IMG/VR virus record: IMGVR_UViG_3300005526_000023
Coordinates: 1-28,056 of that record
Origin: a virus
Lineage: Duplodnaviria; Caudoviricetes
DNA: 28,056 nt
Strand: one strand, 5' to 3'
Shown: one piece after another, positions 4,101 to 21,352 of the stretch
Layout of the letters: every line of letters starts with the position of its first letter
Numbering within the stretch: position 1 is the stretch's first letter
Made by a program: the position numbers and the translations under genes
The notes under the pieces: model-generated
What the model was told of the DNA's origin: nothing
Seen by the model: the letters and a program-made list of their open reading frames with translations, nothing else
The model's database searches: none

Positions 4101-4835
4101 GCAGCGCTTGCATACGCGCTCAAGATCATTATCAACATCGTCTACGGCCTGACGTCGGCGAACTTCGACAACCCGTTCAGGGACCTGCGGAACAAGGACA
4201 ACATCGTCGCCAAACGCGGTGCCCTGTTCATGATCGACCTGAAGAACGCGGTCCAGGCGCAGGGTTTCCAGGTCGTTCACATCAAGACCGACTCGATCAA
4301 GATCCCTGGTGCGGATCTCCCCATCATCGAGTTCGTGAAGCAGTTCGGCAAGGACTACGGATACACCTTCGAGCACGAGGTTACGTACGAGAAATTCTGC
4401 CTCGTGAACGATGCCGTCTACATCGCGAAGACGAACACCGGGATCTGGACGGCAACCGGTGCGCAGTTCTCGCATCCGTATGTCTTCAAGACTCTGTTCA
4501 ACCACGAGCCGCTCGTGTTCCTCGATTACTGCGAGACCCGCAGTGTCGTTGGCGCGGCGCTCTACCTGGACTTCGGCGACGGTCCTCAGTTCGTGGGCAG
4601 TGCCGGCAGTTTCGTGCCGGTCAAGGAAGGAACGGGCGGCGGCAAACTGCTCCGGGGAAAGGACGGAGTATTCCATGCGGCTTCCGGAAGCAAGGGATAC
4701 TTGTGGAAGGAAGCAGCCACAGTCTTCGATCTCTCGCTGGAAGACGACATCGACATGAGCTACTTCAGGAAGCTCGTGGACGACGCCGTCAAGAGCATCT
4801 CCAAGTTCGGCGACTTCGAATGGTTCACTAGTTAG
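1125..4835 (+). CDS. Fused SF3 helicase / AEP-type primase / 3'-5' exonuclease / family B DNA polymerase
   Basis: SD GGAGGAGG. Walker A GEAGTGKS. Primase-like motifs VIDFD and SQSGSGIHLHY. Exo I/II/III motifs YDLEVF, YNNRRYD, YCANDV. PolB-like motifs DVASMHP, KIIINIVYG, IKTDS. Confidence 0.9.
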   Translation: MDFFQVERRETKDGFAVYPSWIVDRSTDLMIRGGAFYAIWDESAGLWTTDEFAARRIIDREINARAAELGDITSTRVMTLGRYKSNTWLEFRRYCANMPDTHVTLDSNLAFANTPPRKEDHSSKRLSYDLEPGPIAAYDKLMTRLFDPEERLKLEWATGAIIAGDAKYIQKFIVLYGEAGTGKSTFLHILEQLFDGYWAVFDARALTGTNNSGNIFASEAFRTNPLVAIQHDGDLSRITDNTILSTIISHEPMVMNEKYKSLYMAQIQAFLFIGTNQSVRITDAKSGLIRRLIDVNPTGELFPPAEYNALISQIQFELGAIASHCLDVYRKTGKNFYTGYRPTDMIIRTDIFYNFLLSSFDMLKERNGITLKEAWGLYKIYCAESGFERMMNMHRFRDELRNYFDEFHPKTRVDGIEVRSLFRGFQTQKLTYLRLPEPEVPSLVMDETTSLLDEMLADCPAQYANKDGTPLKKWANVRTTLAGLDTTKLHYVKPPGQHIVIDFDLTGDDGQKSLERNLEAASGWPPTYAEYSQSGSGIHLHYIYTGDVTKLSRVFDVGIEVKIFSGDASLRRSLSKCNNIPVATISSGLPLKEKRMIDSDTVQSERGLRNLILRNLHKEIHPGTKPSIDFIYKILEDAYNSGLPYDVTDMRPRILAFANNSTNQPEYCIRKVIDMKFSSEAELPPAPEPQDDRYVFYDLEVFPNLFVCCWKFRGSDNVVKMINPSSVEMEELARMNLIGYNNRRYDNHIIYARIMGYSELDLYKLSQRIVKGEGGAFFGDAYNLSFADIFDFSSEKKSLKRFQIDLGLNHRELGLPWDEPVDPSLWDHVANYCANDVITEEQVFEDRIQDFRARQMLAALSGLTVNDTTQRHTAKIIFGDVKNPQADFIYTDLSGEFPGYVYDFGKSIYKAEIVGEGGYVYAEPGMYSDVAVLDVASMHPTSITVLDLFGPYTPRFTALTEARLAIKRGDYNTAGRLLDGKLKPYLGSSEDAAALAYALKIIINIVYGLTSANFDNPFRDLRNKDNIVAKRGALFMIDLKNAVQAQGFQVVHIKTDSIKIPGADLPIIEFVKQFGKDYGYTFEHEVTYEKFCLVNDAVYIAKTNTGIWTATGAQFSHPYVFKTLFNHEPLVFLDYCETRSVVGAALYLDFGDGPQFVGSAGSFVPVKEGTGGGKLLRGKDGVFHAASGSKGYLWKEAATVFDLSLEDDIDMSYFRKLVDDAVKSISKFGDFEWFTS

Positions 4836-5774: not shown

Positions 5775-6125
5775 ATGGCGTCCACACCGGACGATGACAA
5801 GAAGGACACCCTGATCCTCCCCGAGGTCGGGCCTATCCCCGACGACCCGATCGCGAGCACCAGGCACGAACGGGCCATGCCGGCAATGACCGACATCCTG
5901 GAGGAGAACCGTTCCGCGGTAACGGAACTGACCTCGTACGACCGGGTCATGACCTTCATCAGGGCCCAGGGCGCGTTCATCCGGGCACAGAGCTATTTCC
6001 TCGAGGTGGGCCGGAATCAGACGGACGACAAGGATTACATCCAGCACCTCACCGGCTTCGCCTCCGCCCAGGCCGAGCTCATCCGGGCGCAGCAGGACTT
6101 CCTGAAGATGTTCGGGGCGATGTGA
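5775..6125 (+). CDS. Hypothetical protein (116 aa) with internal IRAQ repeats
   Basis: SD AGGAG. IRAQ occurs three times. Stop overlaps the next start. Confidence 0.75.
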   Translation: MASTPDDDKKDTLILPEVGPIPDDPIASTRHERAMPAMTDILEENRSAVTELTSYDRVMTFIRAQGAFIRAQSYFLEVGRNQTDDKDYIQHLTGFASAQAELIRAQQDFLKMFGAM

Positions 6126-6700
6126 TGCCTGCAAGAACCAGGGACAGGCCGGCTCCGACCGAGGAGTACCTGAAGCCCATCACCTTCGAGGACGTCCGGA
6201 TCATCTTCCGCAACTTCAGCGGCAAGCCCGGGCGTTTCAACGCTGAGGGTGACCGGAACTTCTGCTTCCTGCTGGATGACGAACTCGCCGAGGCCATGAA
6301 GGCTGACGGTTTCAACATCCGGGAACTGAAGCCCAGGGTCGAGGGAGAAGCACCGCAGCCGATCCTCGAGGTAAAGGTCAAGTACAAGAAGCGGGACGGA
6401 ACCCGGACGATGCCCCCGCGGGTCGTGCTGATCACCAGCCGCGGCAAGACCAACCTCGACGAGGACATGGTCTCAGTCATCGACTACGCGCAGATCACGT
6501 ACGTCGACCTGATCATCAACCCCCGGCGGTACAACGTCGGAGGCAGGGAAGGCATCTCGGCTTACCTCAAATCGATTTACGTCACGATCGCCGAGGACGA
6601 GCTTGAGCTGAAGTACATCGACACTCCGGACAGCGGCGTCCCAGACAGCGCCATAAACACGATGGGAAGGGAAAGAGAAGTGGAGGAGGTAATAGCTTAG
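6125..6700 (+). CDS. Putative single-stranded DNA-binding protein
   Basis: IIFRNFSGKPGRFNAEGDRNF...VDLIINP...SAYLKSIYVTI pattern with an acidic C-terminus, within the replication module. Start could be GTG 6122 or ATG 6125. Confidence 0.65.
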   Translation: MPARTRDRPAPTEEYLKPITFEDVRIIFRNFSGKPGRFNAEGDRNFCFLLDDELAEAMKADGFNIRELKPRVEGEAPQPILEVKVKYKKRDGTRTMPPRVVLITSRGKTNLDEDMVSVIDYAQITYVDLIINPRRYNVGGREGISAYLKSIYVTIAEDELELKYIDTPDSGVPDSAINTMGREREVEEVIA

Positions 6701-6979
6701 ATGGCCAGCTCCAGGCAGTTTGTCGTGACACCCGACATGCCACCACGAGAGCTGCGATCCGTCTGGAGCAAAGCGGTTGACTACGCGAAAGCGAACCCCG
6801 GAGCGATCGCCACGATCGAGTTCGCGTTCGGAACGTACCCGCTGCCATCCAGCGGTGCAGTAGCTTACGAGACCGGCACGGTACTCAAAGTCGGTCCACC
6901 CGGGGCCAGGGTCACCATCATGTACCTTGACAGCGCGGGCCTGTCCGTGACCACGACTTCGCAGAAGCGGTCAGCTTAA
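6701..6979 (+). CDS. Hypothetical protein (92 aa)
   Basis: GGAGGAGGT SD upstream, abuts the previous stop. Confidence 0.7.
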   Translation: MASSRQFVVTPDMPPRELRSVWSKAVDYAKANPGAIATIEFAFGTYPLPSSGAVAYETGTVLKVGPPGARVTIMYLDSAGLSVTTTSQKRSA

Positions 6980-7028
6980 GGAGGTGGTGCCTAGACGCAG
7001 GGACATATACCTCATCGTCGCAGTTGGA

Positions 7029-7078
7029 GGAGAGGGGCGGGTCATTCTCTACGGGATCACCCGTGCCCGCCTCTCTCT
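7029..7078 (+). terminator. Intergenic GC-rich stem-loop (terminator or processing site)
   Basis: GAGAGGGGCGGGT (7030-7042) pairs with GCCCGCCTCTCTC (7065-7077) including G-U pairs. Inner ACGGG-ATCA-CCCGT hairpin. No U-tract. Confidence 0.5.
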
Positions 7079-7090
7079 AGGATAGGGGTA

Positions 7091-7447
7091 ATGATGCTAT
7101 TCCGACCGCCTTATAACGCCCTGTTCGAGGTCGACGAAGCTATCCCGCGGGGAACGATAACCCATCTCGATCAGTGGTTCGGTCCTGACGTGAAACTGAG
7201 CCTTGAGAGACTGCTGGTCCTCTTCGCTCTCAACCGGTACATCGAGCAAGGGTTGTTCAACGGACCCGGCATGTACCTGCTTCACCTGAGCCGGCGCCGG
7301 GGCGTGCGGGTCATCGGCCATCTTTTCAAATTCCCCCCGGACGCGGATCTCGACCGGATCACCAGGTTCCTCGCGGTAATCGGCGTCAATCTAGAACTAG
7401 AAGGAGAAGACTATGGCCCTCCGGCCTTCAACCCACGACACAACTGA
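7091..7447 (+). CDS. Hypothetical protein (118 aa)
   Basis: ORF after the hairpin with an AGGGG SD. Its 3' end overlaps the next gene by 35 nt. Confidence 0.65.
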   Translation: MMLFRPPYNALFEVDEAIPRGTITHLDQWFGPDVKLSLERLLVLFALNRYIEQGLFNGPGMYLLHLSRRRGVRVIGHLFKFPPDADLDRITRFLAVIGVNLELEGEDYGPPAFNPRHN

Positions 7448-7646
7448 CCTCCCGGCGGGGATGGAAGAGCTCGCCGAGCAGTGGCGGGAACAGTTCTTCA
7501 AGACATCCCCCCAGGTCGCGGACCTGAAGAGGAAGGTGATCGTTTACCGCCGGCAGCGGAATTTCCTCGTCACCGTCCTGGCTACTATTGCCGGCGCCTA
7601 CGTCAAGCGGGTCATGGACGGGCAGGTGAAGCATGCCGTCCGCTGA
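7413..7646 (+). CDS. Small protein with a hydrophobic C-terminal segment
   Basis: Strong SD GAAGGAG, segment FLVTVLATIAGAYV. Confidence 0.7.
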   Translation: MALRPSTHDTTDLPAGMEELAEQWREQFFKTSPQVADLKRKVIVYRRQRNFLVTVLATIAGAYVKRVMDGQVKHAVR

Positions 7647-8112
7647 AGCCTCAGTCGTCATCGGTCGCATCGCCGATATCTACATGACCTCAGGTCTCGC
7701 CACGGACGAAGACGGGAACTACGAGGGCTTCGTCACCATCTCGTGCCAGGACACCGCCGGTAACATCTTCACCGGCCAGGCTGACCCTGACGAGGTTCGC
7801 ACGATGGCCCTGCGCTGGCTGGAAGCAGCCGAGGCCGCGGACCAGGACTGCATCGTGATGACCATGTTGACCCGGGACCTGGACATTCCGCCAGAGCATG
7901 CCGCCGGCTTCATCAGGGCTATGCGTAGCGAACGCGAGCCCGATGAGACCAACGAGACCATCGAGACTGCTCTTGGAGAGCACTACGAGAAGGCAGGAGA
8001 CAATGGACAGGGAACTCAAAAAGAAGGTCATGATCCGGATGAGCCTGTGGATCCTGCTCAAGATCGTCCTGACGGTGGGGATACTCCGCCTGATGAGGAG
8101 ACTCCAGGCTAG
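7633..8112 (+). CDS. Hypothetical protein (159 aa)
   Basis: AGGTG SD, GC3-rich codons. The acidic tail overlaps ORF 8003-8197. Confidence 0.65.
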   Translation: MPSAEASVVIGRIADIYMTSGLATDEDGNYEGFVTISCQDTAGNIFTGQADPDEVRTMALRWLEAAEAADQDCIVMTMLTRDLDIPPEHAAGFIRAMRSEREPDETNETIETALGEHYEKAGDNGQGTQKEGHDPDEPVDPAQDRPDGGDTPPDEETPG

Positions 8113-8197
8113 AGAGGACAGGGAGTGGCATGCCGCTGACGCTGATGCCGCATCAGGAGAAAGCCCTCCTGAAGCTACGCAACGGCAACATCCTTAA
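8003..8197 (+). CDS. Small overlapping single-TM membrane protein (MDRELKKKVMIRMSLWILLKIVLTVGILRL...)
   Basis: SD GCAGGAG just before ATG 8003. Basic N-terminus followed by a hydrophobic helix. Confidence 0.5.
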   Translation: MDRELKKKVMIRMSLWILLKIVLTVGILRLMRRLQAREDREWHAADADAASGESPPEATQRQHP

Positions 8198-9419
8198 GGG
8201 ACCTGTCGGCAGCGGTAAGACCATCACGGCCCTGACCTACTACAACGACATCGAGACCGTCGAGCGGCTGATAGTCATCACGACGGCGAAGAAAAGAGAC
8301 TCCGGGGACTGGCAGGCTGAGGCGCGGCTCCTCGGCCTGTTCCCCGAGGTCGACTCCTGGCATAACATCAAGTCGTACGAGGACATCGAGGACGCGTTCT
8401 TCATCTTCGACGAGCAGAGGATCGTGGGGTCTGGCGCATGGGTGAAGTCCTTCCTGAAGATCACGAAGAACAACAACTGGATCTTGCTGAGCGCGACGCC
8501 CGGGGATACCTGGATGGACTATATCCCCGTCTTCCTGGCGAACGGCTTCTACAGGTCGAGAACGGAATTCCTGCGGGAGCATGTCGTCTTCGCGCCCTTT
8601 GTGAAGTACCCGAAGGTGGAGCGGTTTATCTCCACGGGTGTGCTGGCACGCCATCTCCGGGACATCCTTGTAGAAATGCCGTATGAGAAGCACACCGTCC
8701 GGCACGAGATAGACGTCTATGCCGACTACGACAAGGAGAGGTACGATCAGGTATGGCGGAAGAGATGGAACTACCTGGAGAACAAGCCAATCCAGCACGT
8801 CTCGCAGTTGTTCTCTTTGACACGGAGAGCAGTCAACACTTCATCGTCGAGAGTGGAGCGAATCCGCGAGCTGTTGACGAAGCATCCGCGCATGATTATC
8901 TTCTACAACTTCGACTACGAGCTCGAGATCCTGAGAGCGTTGTCTGCGGATGTGAATTCATCGGCCGGTCCGGAACCATCGACGAAGGAGCCGACGTGGC
9001 CGCCGTGGGAGACCGGACCGACTGGCGGAAATTCTGGCTCGATCACAGCAACTGCGGAGGAGAGTGGAAGTACATCGAGCTCCTCGCCGGCGTCGTTTGC
9101 ACTTGCCGAATGGAACGGCCACAAGCACGAGCCAATCCCGGACACTGACAGCTGGGTCTACCTCGTCCAGTACGCTGCCGGCGCTGAAGGGTGGAACTGC
9201 ACCGAGACTGATACGGTCGTTTTCTACTCGCTCAGCTACTCCTACCGTCAGACCGAGCAAGCCAAGGGAAGGATCGACCGTCTGGATACGCCCTTCACCG
9301 ATCTCTGGTACTACGTCATTTCTTCAGCTGCTCCGATAGACCGAGCCATAGCTGCGACGCTTTCGCGGAAGGAGAATTTCAACGAGCTGAAGTGGCTTAG
9401 GAGCATGACGACGGTTTAA
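8130..9419 (+). CDS. SF2 (SNF2/DEAD-like) DNA helicase
   Basis: Q-motif PHQ, Walker A GPVGSGKT, Walker B IFDEQ, motif III SAT, AGAEGWN, QAKGRIDR. Confidence 0.9.
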   Translation: MPLTLMPHQEKALLKLRNGNILKGPVGSGKTITALTYYNDIETVERLIVITTAKKRDSGDWQAEARLLGLFPEVDSWHNIKSYEDIEDAFFIFDEQRIVGSGAWVKSFLKITKNNNWILLSATPGDTWMDYIPVFLANGFYRSRTEFLREHVVFAPFVKYPKVERFISTGVLARHLRDILVEMPYEKHTVRHEIDVYADYDKERYDQVWRKRWNYLENKPIQHVSQLFSLTRRAVNTSSSRVERIRELLTKHPRMIIFYNFDYELEILRALSADVNSSAGPEPSTKEPTWPPWETGPTGGNSGSITATAEESGSTSSSSPASFALAEWNGHKHEPIPDTDSWVYLVQYAAGAEGWNCTETDTVVFYSLSYSYRQTEQAKGRIDRLDTPFTDLWYYVISSAAPIDRAIAATLSRKENFNELKWLRSMTTV

Positions 9420-9469
9420 TGTCGCGACCGCCAGAGGACGTCTCAGCCGTTTACGCAGGTCAACGGACA

Positions 9470-9690
9470 TACTTGAGACAAAAGCGTATTTCTTCTTTAG
9501 TATAGTAGTAGTAGTAATATATATATATAGGGAGGGTCAGAAACTCCCACGGGAGGTAGGCAAAGAAAAACGCCATTTTGTCTCTACCGCTCGACCATGG
9601 TCGAGTATCGCGGAAAAAACGTGGACTATGATAGAAGGAAATAGAATGTGATTAGTTTTAAAATCACGGGTTCTGTTTTTCGCGAAGGAT
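9470..9690. promoter_or_regulatory. AT-rich intergenic control region: origin-like element plus promoter
   Basis: (TAG)n and (TA)n tracts flanked by inverted GAGACAAAA (9475-9483) / TTTTGTCTC (9576-9584). Perfect 16-bp palindrome at 9590-9605. TATGAT -10-like box at 9627-9632. Confidence 0.55.
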
Positions 9691-9695
9691 GGGAC

Positions 9696-10061
9696 ATGGG
9701 TAACACAGAGAGTCCGTTCAAGACTGAACTGATTGCTGAGCTTCGTCGCATGTTCCCCGGATGCGTGGTCCTGATCAACGATCCCAACTACATTCAAGGG
9801 ATCCCCGATCTCCTCATCCTGTGGAAAGCTATGTGGGCAGCCCTCGAGTGCAAGAAAGCCCGGGGTGCCAAGCGTCAGCCGAATCAGGATTACTGGGTAG
9901 CTATGATGGACCGGATGTCGTTCGCGGCGTTCATCCACCCAGGAAACAAGGAGGTTGTCCTAGGTGATCTTCAACACGCATTCAAATCTCGCAGGGCAGC
10001 ACGCCTTCCTCGGCCCAAGCAAGTACCACTGGATCAACTACGATCCAGACAAGCTGGATGA
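9696..10061 (+). CDS. VRR-NUC domain nuclease (Holliday junction resolvase-like)
   Basis: ESPFKTELIAEL...GIPDLLIL...ALECK...QPNQDYW gives the PD...ExK pattern. ATG 9696 has a GAAGGA SD and is preferred over GTG 9648. Confidence 0.8.
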   Translation: MGNTESPFKTELIAELRRMFPGCVVLINDPNYIQGIPDLLILWKAMWAALECKKARGAKRQPNQDYWVAMMDRMSFAAFIHPGNKEVVLGDLQHAFKSRRAARLPRPKQVPLDQLRSRQAG

Positions 10062-10524
10062 GGTCTTCCTCAGCTCACAGGCCGCTGCGAGAGGAGTGGA
10101 GCTCCATGCCTTCGCTCACCACGCCGTCCGGCTTGGCATAAAGCTTCCTCGTTCTGATAAGACCCTGAACAACTACGTGAACGACGCCATCGGTTTCCGG
10201 ATGATCCCCGAGCAAGTCTTGTACTACTCAGAGAACTGCTTCGGGACTGCTGACACCATCTCGTTCAGAAGGAACTTGCTCCGGATCCACGACCTCAAAA
10301 CCGGCGTCATCGCGGGCTCCATGCATCAGGTAGAAATCTATGCGGCTTTGTTCTGCCTGGAGTACGGGTACAAGCCCGGAGAGATAGAAATAGAACTGCG
10401 GATCTATCAGGACGACGAGATCCTGGTCTCGAATCCCGAAGAATCAGTCGACATTATCGCTCACATCATGAGCAAGATCGTCGTGTTCGACAGGCGCATC
10501 GAACTACTCAGGGAGGCGGGTTAG
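9964..10524 (+). CDS. PD-(D/E)XK / Cas4-like exonuclease
   Basis: HAFLGPS, RGVELH, FGTADTI, IHDLKTG, QVEIYA motifs. SD AAGGAGG. Confidence 0.75.
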   Translation: MIFNTHSNLAGQHAFLGPSKYHWINYDPDKLDEVFLSSQAAARGVELHAFAHHAVRLGIKLPRSDKTLNNYVNDAIGFRMIPEQVLYYSENCFGTADTISFRRNLLRIHDLKTGVIAGSMHQVEIYAALFCLEYGYKPGEIEIELRIYQDDEILVSNPEESVDIIAHIMSKIVVFDRRIELLREAG

Positions 10525-10526
10525 AC

Positions 10527-13283
10527 TTGACTGACGTCATCGTTGAAGCTGACGAGCTTCTTCATTACGGAACGCCCCGCCACTCCGGTCGTTACCCTTG
10601 GGGATCCGGAAAAACCCCGATGGAACGTGGCCGGAAAAGTTTCCTGGATCAGCATGCTGCACTCAAGCGGCAGGGCATGTCTGACCCTGAAATAGCAAGA
10701 GGACTCGGTCTCGGTTCCACGACCGATCTCAGGGCGAAGATCGCGATCGCCAAGGACGAGCATCGCAGGGGTCAGGCAACGCTTGCTCTTCGTCTTAGCG
10801 AGAAGGGCATGTCCAACGTTGCCATCGGTCGTCAGATGGGGCTCAACGAGTCATCCGTCCGAGCTCTTCTCGACCCGGCTAACTCGGCGAAGAGGAGCGT
10901 TCTCGACGCTACTTCTTCCTTCCTCAAGGACCAGGTTGATTCCGGCGGATACCTGGACATCGGCAAGGGAACCGAGAACTGGCGAGGAGTCAGCAGTACC
11001 AAGCTGGCCACCGCCGTGGCGATGCTGAAGCAGCAGGGCTACGTAGTTCACAACGTTCAGGTTCCTCAGCTAGGGACAACAGGTGGGAAGAAGACCACCG
11101 TCAAGGTCCTGGCTCCTCCGGGAACCACGTACGTAGACGTCAAGACTCATCCCGAGCTCATCAAGACTGTCGCCGCGACTAGCCCAGATCACGGCCGTAC
11201 CATCGAGAGCATAAAGCCCCCGGTGGCTGTTGACCCTAAGCGAGTCGGTGTCAGGTGGGCCGAGGATGGTGGAGGCAATGCCGATGGCATAATCTTCGTG
11301 CGGCCCGGAGTTCCCGATGTATCTCTCGGTGACTCGGCCTATGCTCAGGTCCGTATCAAGGTAGGGCCCGGTCACTACCTCAAGGGCATGGCCATGTACA
11401 AGGATGGCCTTCCTGCCGGAACCGATCTGCAGTTCAACACCAACAAGCGGCGGTCACCGAACAAGCTCGATGCGATGAAGACTGTCGGAGACGATCCGGT
11501 TAATCCTTTCGGTTCGGCCATCCGGCAGAAGACATGGACCGATAGCTCGGGCAAGAAGCACCAGTCTCCGATGAACATCGTGAACGAGCAAGGTGACTGG
11601 AGGGATTGGAGCAGGTCGCTCTCTTCCCAGGTTCTTTCCAAGCAGAACCCGCATCTTGCCAAGCGACAGCTCGATCTGGCTCTTCAGAGTAAGCGTGATG
11701 AGCTAGACGAGATCATGCGGCTGACTAACCCGGTGATCAAGCACAAGCTTCTCATGACGTTTGGTGACTCTGCTGATTCCGCGGCAGTCCACCTCAAGGC
11801 CGCAGCCATGCCGGGCCAGAAGACTCACGTCATCCTCCCGATCGAGGGAATGAGGGCAGATCAGATCTACGCTCCGAATTACCACAACGGAGAGAAGGTC
11901 GTACTGATCCGGCACCCTCATGGGGGAACGTTCGAGATCCCGGAACTCACGGTCAACAACCGGCATCCTCTGGCCAAGTCGACGATCGGGTCCGCTCCTG
12001 ATGCGGTAGGAATCCATCCTTCCGTAGCTAAGCGGCTATCTGGTGCCGACTTCGACGGTGACACGGTCCTGGTTATACCGAACAAGCGTGGCGACATCAG
12101 GACCACCGATTCGTTGGCTAGCCTCAACGACTTCGATCCTATCGTTCACTACGCCCCGCATGACGGGATGCGTACCATCGACGGCGGTATCTACCACGCT
12201 AAGACGGGATCGGTGGATTACGGCGGCAGGAATCCGAAGGGCCGGCCGAAGCAGCAGCAGATGGGCGATGTGTCCAACCTGATAACGGACATGACCATCA
12301 AGGGCGCAGATCGTTCCGAGATAGCCCGTGCTGTCAAGCATTCGATGGTAGTCATCGATTCCGAGAAGCACCACCTCGATGTCAAGCAGTCCTACGTCGA
12401 CAACGGCATAGCCCAGCTCAAGGCGAAGTACCAGGGTCGTACTACCAAGGGCCGTCTTGCTGGCGCATCGACCATCATCTCGAGGGCAGGATCCGAGATA
12501 CGGGTTCCTGAAAGAAGGCCCCGCCCCGCATCAAAGGGTGGTCCTATCGATCCGGTCACAGGCCAACGGATGTTCGAGGAAACGGGCACCACGAGCGTAG
12601 ATCGTAGGGGTCGCACCATCGTGAAGACCCGCCCCTCTCAAAGGCTGGCCGAAACGGCGGATGCCCGCACTCTCCTGAGTGATACCCCCTCACCCATGGA
12701 AGAGATCTATGCCGCCCACTCTAACGGCATGAAGGGGCTGGCTAACAGGGCCAGGCTTGCTGCTCTTCAGACAGGGCGCCTGACTTACTCCTCGTCTGCG
12801 GCAAAGGTGTACCGCAATGAGGTGGCTTCACTAACTGCCAAGCTGGGGGTAGCCAAGAAGAACGCCCCCCTCGAAAGACAAGCACAGTTGGTGGCCAACC
12901 AGATTGTTGCCGCCCGCCTCCACGATAACCCCCATATCAAAGAGGACCCTGATGCATACAAGAAGCTAAAGGGTACCTCACTGCAGCAGGCTCGTGATCG
13001 TGTCGGTGCTAAGAAGCAGATGATAGAGATCACAGCTAGGGAGTGGCACGCTATACAGTCAGGTGCTATCAGTACCAACCGCCTGTCTGAGATCATCGAT
13101 AATGCCAACATCGATGAGCTTAAGAAGCTAGCCACACCACGTACCACACAGGGCATGACACCAACGAAGATGGTACTGGCTAGGTCTAGGCTAGCCTCCG
13201 GCTACACACAAGCCGAGGTTGCCCAGTCCCTTGGCATCTCTGTCAGTACACTCAACGCTGCACTCAAGAGTGAGGGAGGATGA
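10527..13283 (+). CDS. Single-chain double-psi-beta-barrel (YonO-like) RNA polymerase with HTH domains
   Basis: LIRHPH (RxP motif, about 11910) followed by GIHP...LSGADFDGD (DFDGD at 12048-12062). HTH-like segments at both ends. TTG start with GGGAGG SD. Confidence 0.75.
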   Translation: MTDVIVEADELLHYGTPRHSGRYPWGSGKTPMERGRKSFLDQHAALKRQGMSDPEIARGLGLGSTTDLRAKIAIAKDEHRRGQATLALRLSEKGMSNVAIGRQMGLNESSVRALLDPANSAKRSVLDATSSFLKDQVDSGGYLDIGKGTENWRGVSSTKLATAVAMLKQQGYVVHNVQVPQLGTTGGKKTTVKVLAPPGTTYVDVKTHPELIKTVAATSPDHGRTIESIKPPVAVDPKRVGVRWAEDGGGNADGIIFVRPGVPDVSLGDSAYAQVRIKVGPGHYLKGMAMYKDGLPAGTDLQFNTNKRRSPNKLDAMKTVGDDPVNPFGSAIRQKTWTDSSGKKHQSPMNIVNEQGDWRDWSRSLSSQVLSKQNPHLAKRQLDLALQSKRDELDEIMRLTNPVIKHKLLMTFGDSADSAAVHLKAAAMPGQKTHVILPIEGMRADQIYAPNYHNGEKVVLIRHPHGGTFEIPELTVNNRHPLAKSTIGSAPDAVGIHPSVAKRLSGADFDGDTVLVIPNKRGDIRTTDSLASLNDFDPIVHYAPHDGMRTIDGGIYHAKTGSVDYGGRNPKGRPKQQQMGDVSNLITDMTIKGADRSEIARAVKHSMVVIDSEKHHLDVKQSYVDNGIAQLKAKYQGRTTKGRLAGASTIISRAGSEIRVPERRPRPASKGGPIDPVTGQRMFEETGTTSVDRRGRTIVKTRPSQRLAETADARTLLSDTPSPMEEIYAAHSNGMKGLANRARLAALQTGRLTYSSSAAKVYRNEVASLTAKLGVAKKNAPLERQAQLVANQIVAARLHDNPHIKEDPDAYKKLKGTSLQQARDRVGAKKQMIEITAREWHAIQSGAISTNRLSEIIDNANIDELKKLATPRTTQGMTPTKMVLARSRLASGYTQAEVAQSLGISVSTLNAALKSEGG

Positions 13284-13573
13284 ACATGACAGACGACAGT
13301 GAGTACATGCTGACCACCATCGACAATCCATGGAACCCCTACACTCACTGGGATGAGTGGCAGGCATACGACATACGTCATGGACACAACACGTCTGGCT
13401 TTCTTGCTCGTGTTGTTAGCTTTTCATTTGATTTGTCAGAGACAGATCAGGATTTGGCAATCAAGCAAGCGATTGACGAAATCGTAAAAGAAAATGTTTC
13501 CGGCATTTTCAAAAAGATTTCGCCAGATGAGGTACCTTCTCCCAAAATGCTGACGGGGGGAGGGGTCTCGTAG
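13280..13573 (+). CDS. Hypothetical phage protein (97 aa), last gene before the putative genome end
   Basis: SD GAGGGAGG, ATGA overlap with the RNAP stop, MLTTIDNPWNPY motif. Start could be 13286. Confidence 0.8.
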   Translation: MNMTDDSEYMLTTIDNPWNPYTHWDEWQAYDIRHGHNTSGFLARVVSFSFDLSETDQDLAIKQAIDEIVKENVSGIFKKISPDEVPSPKMLTGGGVS

Positions 13574-13665
13574 AAAGCACCCCCCTCCTGCATCGCCGAA
13601 CCCCTAAAAAATGCCCCGGGGGAAGAATCCGGGGGAAGTCGCCGGAAAAAGTCCGCCGGAAGTAG
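13555..13665. other. Putative cos / genome-end junction
   Basis: GGAGGGG..CCCCTCC inverted repeat, then CGCCGAACCCCT (13594-13605), an A-tract, and repeated CCGGGGGAAG and CGCCGGAA. Lies at the early-to-late module boundary. Confidence 0.55.
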
Positions 13666-13671
13666 GTCTGG

Positions 13672-14058
13672 ATGAAGAACGGGTTCCGTTTGCATGGGCT
13701 TCTCATCCTAGGAATCACTTTCATGGCCTACGGACTGGGCCTGATCTTCGGATACATCCCTTCGATCTCCAGAATTCTTTACGTAACTCCAGCGGAGGTC
13801 GGATGGACGTTTCTTTTGGTCGGCTCGGTCATGTTCGTAAGCCTGGTCAGTGACTTCGATCAAGCGCTTTATGCCATGGCAGCACTGATCTCATCTGCCT
13901 GGGCGACGATTCTTACCATCTTGGCACTAGGACCTAACGGCTGGGATGGAAGCCTGGCGTGGTGGTGTCTTGCTGTGCTGTGCGTTCTGCTGGCCGGAAG
14001 GAGCGATCCTCCAGAGCCGCTCAATCTTCCTCCTCCGCCAGAGGAGAAGCCGCCATGA
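13672..14058 (+). CDS. Membrane protein with about 4 TM helices (holin-like candidate)
   Basis: Four hydrophobic segments and a Pro-rich tail, located near the endolysin. Confidence 0.65.
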   Translation: MKNGFRLHGLLILGITFMAYGLGLIFGYIPSISRILYVTPAEVGWTFLLVGSVMFVSLVSDFDQALYAMAALISSAWATILTILALGPNGWDGSLAWWCLAVLCVLLAGRSDPPEPLNLPPPPEEKPP

Positions 14059-14303
14059 CCGCGGAATCGTTCGCAATAGACGTTGTCATCGTGACGATCG
14101 TTTCCGGTTTGTTCGCGATCGGCGCATGGATCAACGCGAAACGGGCCAAACGGCAAGAGTCTCTGCTGGCTCGGGAGAAGCAGGAAGCAGAAGCCTGGGT
14201 CCGTGCTCAGGAGATTTACCAGAAAGCTATCGCGACCCAGACTCAGCAGCTAGAACAAGCCAACCGCAGGATCATAGAGCTGGAACAAGGACGAAACGAC
14301 TGA
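14055..14303 (+). CDS. Small membrane protein, 1 TM plus coiled coil (holin/lysis accessory candidate)
   Basis: SD GAGGAG, ATGA overlap. FAIDVVIVTIVSGLFAIGAWI followed by a charged heptad-like helix. Confidence 0.7.
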   Translation: MTAESFAIDVVIVTIVSGLFAIGAWINAKRAKRQESLLAREKQEAEAWVRAQEIYQKAIATQTQQLEQANRRIIELEQGRND

Positions 14304-14447
14304 GATCACTCCTGCAGGGGGCGCCGGTGCGTTCCTTAATCGCTTATGAGTGGCGTAGCCCCCCCGCGTTGCAAGTAGGTGAAAAGTCTCTTCAGCCCGC
14401 GCCGAAGAGACGGGAACTCCCGGTGCCCCCGGCAGGAGTGATCTCGG
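14300..14447 (+). ncRNA. Candidate structured RNA (three-way junction)
   Basis: About 35-bp imperfect outer stem (14300-14336 with 14412-14447) enclosing two hairpins, filling the whole intergenic gap. Confidence 0.5.
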
Positions 14448-14460
14448 CTGAGTGATAACT

Positions 14461-14913
14461 ATGCCAGAAGTGGAGGTGAACATTACGGCCTCTCGCAAGA
14501 CTTCTCAAAATGAGCGTAGGACCAGAGGACGGCCTGCTACGACGCTCAAAGGCAGGGAAGATCAGCTTATCGCTCTGGCCGTGGATGTCGCCGAAGAGCA
14601 GCTGCTCAAGGGAACTGCCTCCGCTCAGGTTATCACTCACTACCTGAAACTCGGCACAACACGAGAAAGGCTTGAGCAAGAGCGGCTTACACGAGAGAAC
14701 GCTCTCTTGACTGCTAAGGTTGAAGCTCTGGCCTCTGCTCAAAGGGTCGAAGAACTCTACGCAAACGCTCTCAAGGCCATGAGAGTGTACTCAGGGAATG
14801 CTGAAAGCGATGACTACCCAGAGACTGAGATGTTATTCCGAGCTGGTCCGGATCGAGGGTTTCAGGGAGAGATTCCGGTATCTTCAGCTGCATTCGTCTA
14901 TAGGGGTCACTAG
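14461..14913 (+). CDS. Putative terminase small subunit / helical DNA-binding protein
   Basis: RGRPATT...EDQLIALAVDVAEEQL..GTASAQVITHYLKLG plus coiled coil, adjacent to the HNH gene and near the putative cos. Start uncertain (14452/14461). Its tail overlaps the HNH gene. Confidence 0.55.
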   Translation: MPEVEVNITASRKTSQNERRTRGRPATTLKGREDQLIALAVDVAEEQLLKGTASAQVITHYLKLGTTRERLEQERLTRENALLTAKVEALASAQRVEELYANALKAMRVYSGNAESDDYPETEMLFRAGPDRGFQGEIPVSSAAFVYRGH

Positions 14914-15226
14914 TTTCGGGTCTGACAGGTGGCTGAATCAGCAGTTCTACACCTCGCGTGAGTGGCGGCGGTGCCGTAGCGAGGTTATCCTGAGGGATTA
15001 CGGATGCGATCTGGGTGTTGAGGGCTATGAGATCTATGACAGGATAGCCATTCATCACCTGAATCCGATGACGGTGGACGACATCACCCACGGAAACGAG
15101 AGCATCTTCGACCCAGAGTTCCTGATAACCGTTTCCCATAGGACTCACAATGCTATTCACTTCGGTGACGAAAAGTTGTTGAGGGCTCCTCTCGTGGTAA
15201 GGCGCCCCGGCGACACTAAGCTATGG
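14798..15226 (+). CDS. HNH endonuclease domain (packaging-associated), no in-frame stop before the endolysin
   Basis: FYTSREWRRCRSEVILRDYGCDL...IHHLNP...LITVSHRTHNAIH. Domain ends at RRPGDTKLW. Confidence 0.85.
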
Positions 15227-15238
15227 TTAGGAGCCAGC

Positions 15239-16135
15239 ATGGTAGCAACAAGCACAATGATCTCGCCGAACAGGCGTTCCGGCCGGCGCGGATCCATCGT
15301 CTTCATCGGCATCCACACCATGGAGGCACCGGAAGGTTCCTCGACCGCCGAGAACGTCGCGGCCTACTTCGCGAAGCCGGCTACTCAGGCGTCGTCGCAC
15401 TGGTGTGTCGACAACAACTCGCGAGTTCGCTGCGTCAACGACGGTGACGAGGCCTGGACGATGCCGCCGGTGAACCCGAACTCGCTCAACATCGAACTGG
15501 CCGGCTACGCCAGTCAGGGCAGTTCCGGCTGGAACGACGCGTACTCGCGGTCCATGCTCGACAACGCCGCTGTGTGCGCCGCGGAGTGGTGCCGCAAGTA
15601 CTCGATCCCGCTCCGGCGCAACACGGACGCCCAGATCAGGGCTTACACCAAGGGGTTCGTCGGCCACGTCGACGTGAACCGGGTCTTCCGGTCGAGCGAT
15701 CACTACGACCCCGGCCCTGCCTTCCCGTGGACCGACTTCCTCAAAATGGTCGGCAAGTACCTCGGTTCCACGCCGCCTCCTTCCGGCGGCGGCGGAAAGC
15801 CGAAGCCGAACTGCACGGCGTTCCAGCGGGCCGTTCACACCACGGCCGACAACCAGTGGGGACCCGAGACCGACAAGTGCGGCGAGGCGCTTGAAGCGGC
15901 CTCTCCCTACGGCGGAAGGAGATATCCCTATGGTGTTCAGTACGCGCAGAAGGTCGTCGGGACGACACAGGATGGTAGCTGGGGTCCCGCATCGAACACC
16001 GCGCTCTACAACACCGTGGTCGCGGTTCAGAAGGCGCTGCTTGGGATGGGCTTCGACCCGAAGGGCGCCGACGGGGTCTGGGGAAACAACACCGATTCCG
16101 CATACAACTCTGCTCGTGCTGCCTGCCGTCTCTAG
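15239..16135 (+). CDS. Endolysin: N-acetylmuramoyl-L-alanine amidase (Amidase_2) with C-terminal peptidoglycan-binding repeats
   Basis: IHTME, SSHW, AW, NIELAG, GHVD, HYDPG Zn-amidase motifs. Pro/Gly linker. DNQWG, DGSWG and DGVWG repeats. Own SD AGGAG 6 nt before ATG 15239. Confidence 0.88.
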   Translation: MVATSTMISPNRRSGRRGSIVFIGIHTMEAPEGSSTAENVAAYFAKPATQASSHWCVDNNSRVRCVNDGDEAWTMPPVNPNSLNIELAGYASQGSSGWNDAYSRSMLDNAAVCAAEWCRKYSIPLRRNTDAQIRAYTKGFVGHVDVNRVFRSSDHYDPGPAFPWTDFLKMVGKYLGSTPPPSGGGGKPKPNCTAFQRAVHTTADNQWGPETDKCGEALEAASPYGGRRYPYGVQYAQKVVGTTQDGSWGPASNTALYNTVVAVQKALLGMGFDPKGADGVWGNNTDSAYNSARAACRL

Positions 16136-16143
16136 GAGCGCTG

Positions 16144-16836
16144 ATGACGGTCAACGACGACAGCATTCTCGATTCGACCAAGCACACCCTGGGTCTGGAT
16201 CCCGCAGTCGAGGTGTTCGATACCGATGTCATCACGCATCTCAATTCAGCCTTCGGCGTTTTGCGGCAGCTTGGTGTCGGCCCGGTCGAGCCCTTCGTAA
16301 TCTCGGACAGCACGCCGACGTGGGCGGACTTCAGCTCGGACATGGACCGGCTCCAGAGCGTGCGATCCTACGTCTATACGACAGTCCGGGTTCTGTTCGA
16401 CCCTCCGGCGACTTCGTTCGGGATCTCAGCCCTTACCGAGGTCAACAAAGAGCTGGCGTGGCGTCTTAACGTCGAGGGCGAAGACATCAATCCTCCGGTT
16501 CCGCCTCCTGACATGGAGCTTCCAGACCAGGTCTTCAAGCCGAAGCCCGTGAACCTCGGCTACATGCCTGTCGTCACTCCCGACATGACAGACGGGAACG
16601 TGTTCTACCTCACGCTGTACGGCGACTGCACGATCAACGCTCCGGTGAACGGCCTGGACGGCGGTCACATGACCATGGAGCTTACCTCAGCTGGCTACGC
16701 AGTCACCTGGGGAGCGGGATGGAACTGGGGCACCTACGGAGAGCCGGTTCTTACTCCTGACGGCACCGACATCATCAGCGCGGTCTTCAGGGAGACCTTC
16801 GGCGAGTGGCATGCCGGCTGGACTCCTGGCTTCTGA
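16144..16836 (+). CDS. Head-to-tail adaptor with C-terminal extension
   Basis: SILDSTKHTLG...LRQLGVGP...VLFDPP...LAWRL pattern, then a Pro linker and an extra beta-rich domain. SD AGGAG. Confidence 0.65.
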   Translation: MTVNDDSILDSTKHTLGLDPAVEVFDTDVITHLNSAFGVLRQLGVGPVEPFVISDSTPTWADFSSDMDRLQSVRSYVYTTVRVLFDPPATSFGISALTEVNKELAWRLNVEGEDINPPVPPPDMELPDQVFKPKPVNLGYMPVVTPDMTDGNVFYLTLYGDCTINAPVNGLDGGHMTMELTSAGYAVTWGAGWNWGTYGEPVLTPDGTDIISAVFRETFGEWHAGWTPGF

Positions 16837-17306: not shown

Positions 17307-20279
17307 GTGGCCACTTACCGAGGTGCAGCAGGAGCCGCGTCGAACAACTCGCTCAGTTCGCTTCCCGTCACCCTTCCTGCCGGATGGCAGCCAGGCGACT
17401 TCTGTATCATCGCCGGCGGCATCAACTCAGCTACCGCAACGTTCACCGATCCTGCTGGATGGACGCTGTCCGAGAAGGGAGCACTGTCTTCCGGAGGACT
17501 TTCGTACTTCTACTACTGGAGAATCCTTCAAGCCGGAGATACGGATCCAGTAGTCGTATCTTCCGTTTCCGGGCCTTACCGGTACATGTCTGCTGCTTAT
17601 ACTCCGGCGGCGGGCAGGAAGTTCCAGTTCGACGCTAACGGAGTGGCGGCCAACGTCACCACCGCCGGAACATCAATTACTCCTCCGTCCTGCTCCTCAA
17701 GGGCCGCCGGAAGCGTGTCAATCCTCGTCACGATGGGACGGGGAAGCGGCACTGTCACGCAGACAGCTTTCACCAACACTCCTACGACGAACTACACCAA
17801 CGGAAACCCCTTCTGGGGCCCGACCGGAATCAGCTACACCGGGCATCCGTTCATCGTGAACCAGCACGCCCTCAACGCCCAGAACATCTCGACGTTGAAC
17901 CCCAGTGCGGAGACAGTGGCTTCCACGCCAGCTAACACATATTTCATGTCTTCAATGCACTACAACGTCACTGAGGTTGCTGCTGAGAACTGGACAGCCG
18001 AAGGCGGCACTGACGCTACTCCCATCACCACCGGGAACAGCGGCGGCGCCTCAGGTGACGCGCTCGATTACGCAAGCATCGGAAGCGGTGCCACCCTGAA
18101 CTATGAGACCGCACAGAAAGCTCATGGTTCCCTGTCTGCTGCGGTTGCTGTTGGCGTAACGTCCACTACCTGTTACTTCGGTTGGTTGACGGCGCACGCC
18201 AGACTTTATGCAAGGTTCTATGTGCGCTTTCCTAGCGTTCCGACAGCGAACACGAGATTCTTCGGGTTCTACAGCAGCGGGCCGATCACGACAGTCGCCG
18301 CTTTCCTTCGGTACGCCACCACAGGCAAGCTGGTTGTCTGTGATTCGGCCTCGGCGACTCAGTGGACAAGCACGAACAACCTGCCGCTTAACCAGTGGAT
18401 CCGTATCGAATTCTGGGCTTACGCGAACGCTACTGCCGGGCAGTTCAAGATCAGCTATTACAACACTCCCGACAGCGACACCCCGACGGAGACGTTCACC
18501 AGTCCGGCGACTCTCAACCTCAGCACGACGATCGCTGCCGTGATAGCCGGGATTTCCATCGCGCAGGCGAGCGTGCCAAAGTTCTGGATAGACGATCTCG
18601 CATACAGCAATCTCGAGCAGCCGAACGTGGCGCTGTCTTCAGGTACGGTCGCGATAAGCCTGAAGAAGATGGGCGTAGCTGGCGCCGGTACCGGGAGCTC
18701 TGCGTTTTCCGGTGCTGTAGCGCTGAAGAAGATGAAGGTTGCCGGTTCAGGTGCTGGGAGCTCTGCATTTTCTGGTGCTATCGCGCTGAAGAAGATGCGA
18801 GTCGCGGGTTCAGCAGCGACCGTGCCTGTTTCATTTTCTGGTGCCATCAGTCTCAAGAAGATGCGAGTCGCGGGTTCAGCAGCGATCGTGCCTGTTTCAT
18901 TTTCTGGTGCCATCGCACTGAAGAAGATGGGCGTCTCCGGTTCAGGTGCCGGCAGTTCCGCATTTTCTGGCGCCGTGTCCATGAAGAAGATGGGCATTGC
19001 CGGAACGGGCTCGGTTTCCTCGATCAACAACGTTACTGTTAGCATCGCGCTCAAGAAGATGATCGTTTCCGGTACCGGTGCCGGAACATCGTCCGTAACT
19101 GGCGCGGTGAAACTCAAGAAGATGTCCGTGGCCGGCACAGGGTCGGTCATGGTTACGGTTTCAGGCTCCGTCAGCCTGAAGAAGATGGGTGTGTCGGCTA
19201 CCGCGACCGGCATATCCACTGCCTCCGGAGGCGTCACTCTTAAAAAGGGATCCATCTCAGGTTCGGCTGCCGGCATTTCGTCCGCCGCGGGTGCCGTCAA
19301 GCTGAAGAAGATGGGCATTTCCGGGTCGGCATCGGTAGCTGTCTCAGCCGCAGCAGCTGTCGTCATGAAGAAGATGGTCGTGTCGGGCGCCGTAACGTGC
19401 ACGACTGTCGCTTCTGGCGTTGTCGGCCTGAAGAAGTGCAGAATCTCTGGTTCAGGGACTGGGATAGCCACGGTCAGCGGTGGTCCCTCTCTGAAGAAGA
19501 TGGGCGTCTCCGGAGCAGTAGTTGTTATAACCGTCGGCATCGGCAACGTCTCCCTCAAGAAGATGGGAGTCTCGGGGACTGGGCCCGTGACTTCTGTCGT
19601 CTCAGGAGCTATCGTCCTGAAGAGGATGAGCGTTGCCGGTGCTGGCCAAGGAAGCTCGGCAACTGCCGGTGCCGTGTCCATGAAGAAGATGAAGATCCTC
19701 GGTAGCGGGGAGAAGCTCATCTTCGTGGATGGCTACGTGCGCATGAAGAAGATGGGCGTAGCTGGCACCGGTACCGGTAGTTCCGCGCTTTCTGGCACTG
19801 TGAATCTGAAGAAGATGTCGATTGCTGGCTCTGTCACCTGTAGATCCGCTACTACAGGAGCCATCAGCCTCAAGAAGATGTCTATCTTCGGATCCGGGGA
19901 GAAACTCAACTTCGTCATAGTCGATATACGCATGAAGAAGATGGGCATAGCTGGCAATGGCGCCGGCGTATCCACTCTCACAGGCGTAATCGTCTTGAAG
20001 AAGATGATCACCCTCGGAACTGGCCAGGGACTAGTTGTAGTCACCGGTAATGTGCGTCTGAAGAAGATGCGAGTATCCGGTTCCGTCCTGGTAACGTCTG
20101 TGGCGACGGGCTCTGTGTCTCTCGTCAAAATGGGAGTTTACGGAGAGGGTTCTGTAACGGAGGCGGAAGTCTCTGACTTCTCCGGCAACGTCGCCATGAA
20201 GAAGATGAAGGTTACTGGTCGTGGTGGACTTCTTGTCACCGGCCGTTCTTCTCAGTTGTTCATCTTCTCTCCACTATAA
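17307..20279 (+). CDS. Fibre-like virion protein: N-terminal beta-sandwich/lectin-like domains plus 25 x ~21-aa [LM]KKM repeats
   Basis: 990-aa ORF. YARFYVRF...WIRIE...FWIDDL lectin-like segment. Repeats counted from the translation. Confidence 0.75.
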   Translation: MATYRGAAGAASNNSLSSLPVTLPAGWQPGDFCIIAGGINSATATFTDPAGWTLSEKGALSSGGLSYFYYWRILQAGDTDPVVVSSVSGPYRYMSAAYTPAAGRKFQFDANGVAANVTTAGTSITPPSCSSRAAGSVSILVTMGRGSGTVTQTAFTNTPTTNYTNGNPFWGPTGISYTGHPFIVNQHALNAQNISTLNPSAETVASTPANTYFMSSMHYNVTEVAAENWTAEGGTDATPITTGNSGGASGDALDYASIGSGATLNYETAQKAHGSLSAAVAVGVTSTTCYFGWLTAHARLYARFYVRFPSVPTANTRFFGFYSSGPITTVAAFLRYATTGKLVVCDSASATQWTSTNNLPLNQWIRIEFWAYANATAGQFKISYYNTPDSDTPTETFTSPATLNLSTTIAAVIAGISIAQASVPKFWIDDLAYSNLEQPNVALSSGTVAISLKKMGVAGAGTGSSAFSGAVALKKMKVAGSGAGSSAFSGAIALKKMRVAGSAATVPVSFSGAISLKKMRVAGSAAIVPVSFSGAIALKKMGVSGSGAGSSAFSGAVSMKKMGIAGTGSVSSINNVTVSIALKKMIVSGTGAGTSSVTGAVKLKKMSVAGTGSVMVTVSGSVSLKKMGVSATATGISTASGGVTLKKGSISGSAAGISSAAGAVKLKKMGISGSASVAVSAAAAVVMKKMVVSGAVTCTTVASGVVGLKKCRISGSGTGIATVSGGPSLKKMGVSGAVVVITVGIGNVSLKKMGVSGTGPVTSVVSGAIVLKRMSVAGAGQGSSATAGAVSMKKMKILGSGEKLIFVDGYVRMKKMGVAGTGTGSSALSGTVNLKKMSIAGSVTCRSATTGAISLKKMSIFGSGEKLNFVIVDIRMKKMGIAGNGAGVSTLTGVIVLKKMITLGTGQGLVVVTGNVRLKKMRVSGSVLVTSVATGSVSLVKMGVYGEGSVTEAEVSDFSGNVAMKKMKVTGRGGLLVTGRSSQLFIFSPL
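18660..20220 (+). repeat. Coding tandem repeat, about 63-66 bp period (AAGAAGATG core)
   Basis: 25 degenerate units, including a near-identical 66-bp pair starting at 18789 and 18855. Confidence 0.9.
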
Positions 20280-21253: not shown

Positions 21254-21330
21254 TCCGGGGGCGTCGTCTACCCTGCATGTCGGTCTGTGCCGTCAAGTAC
21301 TGATCGATGTGACGCGGCGGCGCCCCCGGA
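21254..21330 (+). terminator. Long intergenic hairpin
   Basis: TCCGGGGGCGTCGTC pairs with GGCGGCGCCCCCGGA. Inner CATGTCGGTC/GATCGATGTG stem with G-U pairs. Confidence 0.55.
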
Positions 21331-21352
21331 CCCGTTCTTGAGAGGAGGGTTG

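Follow-up and report, generated by a model that had tools for sequence, protein, structure and literature searches.

The window analysed here is a stretch of 28,056 nucleotides from a tailed phage (Duplodnaviria; Caudoviricetes; IMG/VR record IMGVR_UViG_3300005526_000023, positions 1 to 28,056), and it carries at 10527-13283 a gene for a protein of 918 amino acids. We propose that this protein is a single-chain, DNA-dependent RNA polymerase (RNAP) of the two-barrel type, which is packed into the phage head, injected, and reads a phage-specific promoter with its own helix-turn-helix (HTH) and winged-helix domains. To this reading as a whole we assign a probability of about one half; that the protein is an active nucleotide polymerase is very probable. 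The protein family has already been predicted in print, and the polymerase described here is a further member of it from a soil phage. The gene and the elements encoded within it are the following.

10527-13283, + strand: predicted RNAP gene, 918-aa single-chain two-barrel type (match to the phrog_4291/phage 1706 ORF75 family; models)
10551-10610, + strand: N-terminal tag, residues 9-28, L-x-H-Y-G...S-G-R-Y-P-W-G, low model confidence (conservation, DUF7211-like motif)
10641-10736, + strand: HTH 1, residues ~39-70 (sequence; helices in models)
10746-10892, + strand: HTH 2, residues ~74-122 (weak Pfam matches to GerE and CENP-B_N at 88-116; VIA match to DeoR)
10896-11126, + strand: predicted winged helix, residues ~124-200 (VIA matches to winged-helix structures)
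11226-11588, + strand: predicted first barrel, a beta-like double-psi beta-barrel (DPBB-B) with D253, R276 and K286 (invariance in 150 of 150 homologues; 234-746 aligns to QDE-1)
11814-12086, + strand: predicted second barrel, beta-prime-like (DPBB-A), with R462, P464 and D508-F-D-G-D512 at 12048-12062 (matches to isolated DPBBs; invariance)
13161-13271, + strand: C-terminal HTH 3, residues 879-915 (Pfam HTH_23, Sigma70_r4_2)

The gene and its family

The open frame of 918 codons starts with TTG, which is closely preceded by GGGAGG. In the database the gene call (P0002) is only 887 amino acids long; its start is most likely Met32, so that the conserved N-terminal tag is lost. Near-identical DNA was listed in soil and mine metagenomes, and no RNA dataset was among the listed sequencing runs containing it.

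An earlier note on this DNA had pointed to an RHP followed some 45 residues later by DFDGD, and to three HTH-like segments; we find these to begin at residues 50, 94 and 892. The first two elements are present as described (R462-H-P, and DFDGD at residues 508-512, 46 residues past R462), and a further RHP occurs at 479. The expectation that automatic annotation would see only an HTH protein also proved correct, most GenBank records being labelled 'helix-turn-helix DNA-binding domain protein'. As to the RNAP reading itself, fold and invariant catalytic residues bear it out, whereas its implied novelty was lost: the same reading is found in 10.1101/842583, in PMC2919709 and in PHROG and RefSeq labels.

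The protein matched the profile phrog_4291 ('RNA-dependent RNA polymerase') over residues 7-915 with E=0 and was 38% identical to ORF75 of phage 1706 over 1004 columns. A tblastn search matched 250 phage records, 249 of them over at least 80% of the query, the listed records being 37-53% identical; they came from phages of Arthrobacter, Gordonia, Streptomyces, Lactococcus, Faecalibacterium and others. Among the matches some RefSeq entries read 'RNA-dependent RNA polymerase', and that of FP_oengus 'putative RNA polymerase'. All 8000 scored candidates of a word search matched the polymerase, a search of representatives at 50% identity gave 2154 clusters at E<=0.001 and 880 at E<=1e-30, and relatives were encoded in 308 of 525 candidate stretches of bacterial genome assemblies. 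Full-length homology, HTHs at both ends together with DxDGD, and the gene context all place the protein in the phrog_4291/1706 ORF75 family. NCgl1702 was considered as a relative and rejected; it is a beta/beta-prime-like fusion of 2169 amino acids that belongs to a different family.

For this family an HHpred match to PF05183 (95.68%), HTHs at both ends and the DxDGD signature have been described, and RNA polymerase activity was proposed in the same paper (10.1101/842583; 2021). Earlier, phage 1706 had been recognised as representing one of five YonO-like families, for which eight invariant residues (four Asp, three basic and one Pro) were defined (PMC2919709; 2010). In the literature searched, which comprised neither subscription papers nor the supplements of these two, we came upon neither biochemical work on the phrog_4291 family nor any account of its promoter or proteome of its virions.

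Predicted fold and active site

An AlphaFold2 model built from 117 sequences had a mean predicted local distance difference test (pLDDT) value of 81.7 and a predicted template modelling score (pTM) of 0.66, residues 1-36 being below 50. Foldseek ranked QDE-1 first (E 7e-9), followed by P74-26 gp62, RDR2, gp64 and gp96. With VIA, QDE-1 gave Z 15.6 at a root-mean-square deviation (rmsd) of 4.5 over 379 residues (model 234-746), RDR2 Z 14.5 and P74-26 gp62 Z 13.1, all three exceeding the unrelated rows, while model residues 430-520 matched isolated DPBBs with Z 9.4-9.7 and rmsd ~2. A library of viral structures returned uncharacterised and RNA-dependent RNA polymerase (RdRP)-labelled phage proteins and one protein of P23-45. 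In sequence searches of the PDB the single protein gave no match and the alignment just weak HTH rows; neither YonO nor crAss gp66 appeared in the PDB structure match lists. On the model, then, the nearest solved relatives are QDE-1/RDR2 and P74-26 gp62, not beta-prime, and the two-barrel fold, whose absence would have refuted the earlier note, is predicted.

In the predicted model two double-psi beta-barrels form one active site. Both lie within the one 918-residue chain, and the multisubunit beta/beta-prime layout (separate subunits, alpha, omega) was not found. From the order of the motifs, not from superposition, D253, R276 and K286 are proposed as the equivalents of QDE-1 D709, R738 and K743; the barrel that bears them had not been located in the earlier note. 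Conservation was assessed on 164 loci with matches, of which 150 had open frames of at least 800 amino acids; the phage's own record was excluded and near-duplicates were retained. D253, R276, K286, R462, P464, D508, D510 and D512 were present in all 150 locus homologues. In the best 150 representatives (43-55% identity) the eight catalytic positions were likewise all kept save for one D253E, so the aspartates of DFDGD, whose conservation had been named as a check, are intact in 150 of 150 sequences of either set. The motifs R-x-P...DxDGD are not a product of chance, because all 119 top homologues have R-x-P followed by DxDGD 35-55 residues later and D508, D510, D512, R462 and P464 are invariant. 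The invariance of residues in both barrels argues against a loss of activity. In the sequence alignment the catalytic Asp of the first barrel follows an Ala (A252-D253-G254) and a fifth carboxylate is missing; the protein is thus, like YonO, a single chain of the RdRP-related branch.

DNA-binding modules

The three HTH segments of the earlier note fared unequally. The second and the C-terminal one have Pfam HTH matches, whereas the first forms a helix-turn-helix in the model and gave no Pfam HTH match on this protein (residues 50-62). HTH 3 matched Pfam HTH_23 above the cut-off (E 1.1e-7, best stretch 889-914). Its match to Sigma70_r4_2 (E 1e-5, 25.5 bits) fell just under the cut-off of 25.7, generic HTHs scoring equally, and TIGR02937 was far below its cut-off on the polymerase. 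The N-terminal modules were read from a separate model of residues 34-232, for which Foldseek found nothing at E<=0.001. With VIA, HTH 2 matched the DNA-binding domain of DeoR (Z 7.3, rmsd 2.3 over 49 residues), and the following region matched the eWH domain of TFIIIC tau138 (Z 7.2, rmsd 3.7 over 86) and many winged-helix rows at Z 5.4-6.9; the VIA scores of both modules are middling. The model thus predicts a winged helix as a fourth DNA-binding module, missed by the earlier note.

All three HTHs are kept in 147-148 of 150 representatives, and residues E108, S109 and R112 of HTH 2 are invariant across the 117-sequence alignment. We infer that the HTHs may read the promoter. Co-variation of HTH 2 with the promoter hexamer (TATAAT versus TTTTAT), though seemingly perfect, was rejected as evidence of recognition: there was one change in the tree, at least 25 columns throughout the protein were equally diagnostic, and the comparison amounts to one independent pair.

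A promoter-like motif

A candidate for such a promoter lies before the operon that contains the polymerase gene.

9608-9637, + strand: motif TCGCR-N2-W5-CR-N5-TATRATR, before the VRR-Nuc/Cas4-like/RNAP/phrog_4303 operon, single copy in the window (weight matrix)
9696-10524, + strand: genes for a VRR-Nuc-like endonuclease and a Cas4-like exonuclease, immediately preceding the polymerase gene (conserved neighbours)
13280-13573, + strand: small conserved gene phrog_4303, overlapping the polymerase stop, candidate partner (136 of 138 loci)

The weight matrix was built from the upstream regions of the loci and scored on 150 loci whose upstream sequence extended to 1300 nt or more; some loci served both for training and for testing. 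Of these 150 loci 130 had a site, usually 800-950 nt ahead of the open frame, compared with 2 of 750 regions whose bases had been shuffled, and sites scoring over 16 numbered 200 in sense and 2 in antisense. Several genomes carry further copies. A linear record of the same phage (G001, 46,045 bases) has five: the one at window 9608 and four others close behind the tail genes. Mudcat has 7 in sense and none in antisense, Bilo 2-3, G002 six, G003 six in sense and one in antisense, and Poco6 14 and none. In phage 1706 a looser pattern gave 12 sense and no antisense copies, all at 24-46.5 kb and outside the structural arm; Lactococcus phage CHPC971 had no copy by the strict pattern, the looser one having been applied to its relative 1706 only. 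Inside the structural modules of the genomes scanned no copy was found, one Mudcat copy lying at a module boundary.

The association with the polymerase also appeared when viral contigs were scanned for the motif alone. Such a scan gave 125 stretches; the first 80 listed included 25 on contigs of at least 40 kb, of which 23 were searched. phrog_4291 was present on 22 of the 23, and on all 14 that were at least 90% complete.

The hexamer was TATAAT in 58 of 124 loci, TTTTAT in 48 and TATGAT in nine, the TTTTAT group being one clade. No TTGACA occurs 17 bp upstream of the hexamer. Primary sigma factors need an A at hexamer position 2, which TTTTAT does not have. The AT-rich intergenic stretch around the motif (9420-9647) contains repeats of TAG and TA and, immediately ahead of the motif, a small hairpin; the stretch is a candidate replication origin.

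N-terminal tag and polyprotein fusions

Residues H13, G15, S20, G21 and R22 of the N-terminal tag are present in 146 of 150 homologues. The tag is similar to a motif (DUF7211) in small proteins of the head module (window 21287-22045), and it was found on head-module proteins in five of the six genomes that were scanned; the remaining one, oengus, is a piece of 14.7 kb. In GenBank EU081845 (phage 1706) both ORF75 and the tag-bearing ORF7 are labelled 'structural protein'. From this pattern the tag is a candidate capsid-loading or cleavage signal. In the protease-capsid fusion of the window, a hydrophobic-x-His pattern occurs ten times in the first 284 residues (25931-26790, + strand) and not later; these are candidate maturation sites.

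Three long relatives have the polymerase core fused to the end of polyproteins of a virion-cargo type. P0166 consists of a portal domain, a linker and then an intact polymerase core, and P0190 and P0272 are core-fused polyproteins that share with P0166 an R-x-P...G-x-E-G-G-G-R-F motif. All three keep the eight catalytic residues and end before the C-terminal HTH; P0166 also is without HTH 2. The predicted winged helix is retained in the polyprotein fusions. Fusions of 2H phosphoesterase-like and other domains to MuF or portal proteins have been described as injected cargo, the RNAPs there being only N4-like (PMC5512222). P0273 (DNA polymerase and partial RNAP) and P0274 (partial RNAP and tape measure) have breaks inside domains and were rejected as likely chimeras. 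In P0128 and P0145 a 2H phosphoesterase-like domain (Pfam 2_5_RNA_ligase2) lies ahead of the polymerase tag and may possibly be anti-defence cargo.

Gene context and cos site

The window is recognisable as tailed-phage DNA by its genes for a primase-polymerase, a helicase, nucleases, an endolysin, the terminase, the portal and a protease-capsid fusion, which all lie on the + strand. The neighbours of the polymerase gene are strongly conserved, the Cas4-like gene being found in 138 of 139 loci and the VRR-Nuc gene in 142 of 143. Downstream follow the phrog_4303 gene and the end of the packaged genome.

13553-13625, no strand assigned: genome-end element with G-rich arm, TCTCGYAAAA-like core, C-rich arm, TGCAT, 9-nt cos overhang, A-run and CCCCGG (alignment, records)

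The 46,045-base record begins at window 13603 and ends at 13593, so that the nine bases 13594-13602 are the cos site. Poco6 has the matching nine bases marked as a 3' cos overhang in its record, and 9-base 3' extensions are reported for cluster EL (PMC7302621). Among the 140 loci with at least 250 nt downstream, the end element with a similar 9-mer was found in 67, 43 stop exactly before the 9-mer and 30 fit neither. The position of cos makes the polymerase gene the last but one of the packaged genome, ~310 nt before the end. Beyond the joined ends lies the head module, with a phrog_4259 gene downstream in 59 of 60 loci.

Hairpins at cos and at 9570-9650 were no better than shuffles (z -1.3, -0.9, -1.5), scans of 6000-16500 for sigma-70 promoters and terminators were at chance level (2 versus 3.2 and 7 versus 8.5), and no Rfam family was found in the window.

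Proposed mechanism and alternative explanations

What we observe directly is the open frame with its invariant residues, the gene order, the cos site, and the motif with the places where it occurs; beyond these we infer five steps. First, D508, D510 and D512 would, together with D253, hold two metals, and R276, K286 and R462 would contact RNA and NTP as in QDE-1; by this analogy an active polymerase is very probable. Secondly, the template would be DNA, which the examples of YonO and the Thermus phage enzymes make probable. Thirdly, the N-terminal tag may direct the polymerase into the prohead, and trimming by the protease of the capsid fusion may follow there, a step we consider rather likely. 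With slightly less assurance, we suppose that the injected enzyme would initiate at the copies of the motif with which the early region begins, as well as at the one preceding the operon of the polymerase gene itself. Finally, transcription of the RNAP operon might continue across the joined ends at cos and reach the structural genes, where copies of the motif are missing; this last step is doubtful.

Several observations weigh against this reading. The whole-chain TM-scores against QDE-1 are ~0.3 (Foldseek). Joint inheritance of motif and gene means that finding the two together is no demonstration of recognition; of the 23 contigs found by motif no more than 19 are independent of the training set (18 of these 19 carry phrog_4291), and the training loci include the 9608 site of the same phage. 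In the actinobacterial branch the hexamer TATAAT is a perfect host -10 element. The copy of phage 1706 nearest to ORF75 lies 5.6 kb upstream of it, and because the structural genes have no copy, another promoter or read-through must be assumed for them. The 'structural protein' of phage 1706 is only a GenBank label; such labels reportedly stem from mass spectrometry of virions. P0166, P0190 and P0272 are metagenomic singletons, each a single sequence from a single contig, and the two other long matches look like assembly chimeras. YonO, the sole member of the wider group for which tests exist, serves late genes (PMC5467207). For the phrog_4291 family the literature searched yielded neither enzyme assays nor a map of transcripts or a proteome of virions.

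The most serious competitor, though in our view unlikely, is a non-virion late polymerase similar to YonO. The host RNAP would read the motif as an early promoter of the -10 type, and the phage protein, made at the end of the early arm, would transcribe the structural genes from the conserved cos sequence. This would account for the 58 TATAAT hexamers, for the lack of motif copies in the structural module and for a gene placed just before cos with the head genes next; a TCGC-A-run is common to the cos element and the motif, and YonO is required for 37 late genes (PMC5467207). The variants TTTTAT and TATAGT and the missing -35 box fit host recognition poorly, however, as does the near confinement of the motif to the phrog_4291 clade. 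The 'structural protein' label of the 1706 homologue, the conserved tag and the cargo-type fusions speak for a virion protein, and the cos element can equally well be a terminase site. We favour an injected DNA-dependent polymerase over a late one with host-read early promoters.

Less probable still, and altogether improbable, is an active core whose promoter choice depends on a partner, either the phrog_4303 protein or a host sigma factor, while the HTHs bind DNA for packaging or anchoring. The phrog_4303 gene does follow the polymerase gene in nearly all loci, P0166 and P0190 have intact catalytic residues in spite of their missing HTHs, and the paper on YonO leaves the need for extra factors open (PMC5467207). 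Against such a role stand the retention of three HTHs in almost every representative and the three invariant residues of HTH 2.

A primase-like or catalytically idle DNA-binding protein is very improbable: helicase and nuclease genes and the AT-rich intergenic stretch adjoin, yet there is a separate primase-polymerase gene at 1125-4835, and the residues of both barrels are completely invariant. The least credible is an RdRP as in the PHROG and RefSeq labels, which the best structural matches (QDE-1, RDR2) and the HHpred match to PF05183 (10.1101/842583) would suggest, since the four predicted DNA-binding modules and the DNA motif that travels with the gene point to DNA, YonO of the same branch is strictly DNA-dependent (PMC5467207) and QDE-1 itself also uses DNA.

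Comparison with known systems

The phrog_4291/1706 ORF75 family is found in Arthrobacter AM/AU/AW, Streptomyces BI, Gordonia DJ, Rhodococcus CC, Microbacterium EL, Lactococcus 1706 and FP_oengus phages (10.1101/842583; PMC2919709), with the common gene order helicase, nuclease, exonuclease, polymerase, conserved small gene, cos. Oengus has an integrase (PMC5883640), and Sisseviridae is a proposed name (PMC9723715). Our polymerase shows no categorical difference from this family; promoter motif, winged helix, tag and virion loading are absent from the accessible parts of its descriptions. By description, YonO of SPbeta is likewise a single chain of ~100 kDa with two barrels and an Asp triad (PMC5467207) and is placed in the same branch (PMC2919709). 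YonO differs in that it has been assayed and serves late genes, its promoter being undefined and fused HTHs not described in the accessible parts of that paper (PMC5467207).

QDE-1 of Neurospora and RDR2 of plants are the best structural matches and agree with the branch description in the Ala-preceded catalytic Asp and the lack of a fifth carboxylate (PMC2919709). Unlike our protein they are eukaryotic silencing enzymes, with 9-12% identity and no HTH modules in the aligned range. The enzymes of Thermus phages P23-45/P74-26, gp64/gp62 (non-virion) and gp96 (virion), are compact two-barrel phage RNAPs with private promoter motifs (10.1101/2022.12.01.518664); our model matched this group structurally at Z 13.1 and 9.8. 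Like P0166 with its portal, the virion enzyme gp96 has a structural protein as fusion partner, in its case the tape measure. These phages differ in having two enzymes each, against one found here, and the identity is 12-17%.

The phrog_4291 family is very large and marks a phage lineage across two host phyla, mostly under the labels of a plain HTH protein or an RNA-dependent polymerase. If enzyme, promoter and virion loading are as proposed, it would contain the smallest two-barrel polymerase with fused promoter recognition, would test how the ancient core initiates without sigma, and would offer enzyme and promoter as candidates for an orthogonal expression pair in Gram-positive hosts. Phages of the family have been cultured and hosts exist (Mudcat, Bilo, Poco6, 1706). 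Rather tentatively, we suggest that a self-sufficient, sigma-free RNAP of ~100 kDa, which a short histidine tag directs into the capsid and which after injection reads its own 30-bp promoter through built-in HTH and winged-helix domains, might make the lineage largely independent of host transcription; this might have aided its crossing from Actinobacteria to Firmicutes, and other phages might have captured the core as portal-fused cargo.

Other features of the window

Downstream of cos, a short open frame at 14057-14301 (+ strand, ATG near 14057) follows a membrane protein (13672-14058), possibly as a holin-type pair. The intergenic gap before the phrog_4259 gene contains a very stable branched hairpin (14302-14445, + strand; -97.5 kcal/mol, z -9.4; no Rfam match), and the corresponding region folds at z < -3 in 25 of 40 related loci (base shuffles); it is a possible structured RNA or attenuator heading the late genes. 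At 14798-16135 (+ strand) an HNH endonuclease and an amidase endolysin share one open frame, while they are separate genes in Mudcat and Bilo, which indicates a fusion or a lost stop. A head-module protein of 990 amino acids (17307-20279, + strand) had no Pfam or PHROG match and carries in its C-terminal half ~25 repeats of a 21-residue unit with L-K-K-M. Finally, 1125-4835 (+ strand) encodes a helicase/primase-DNA polymerase fusion of 1236 amino acids (phrog_4210), a known hallmark of the lineage.

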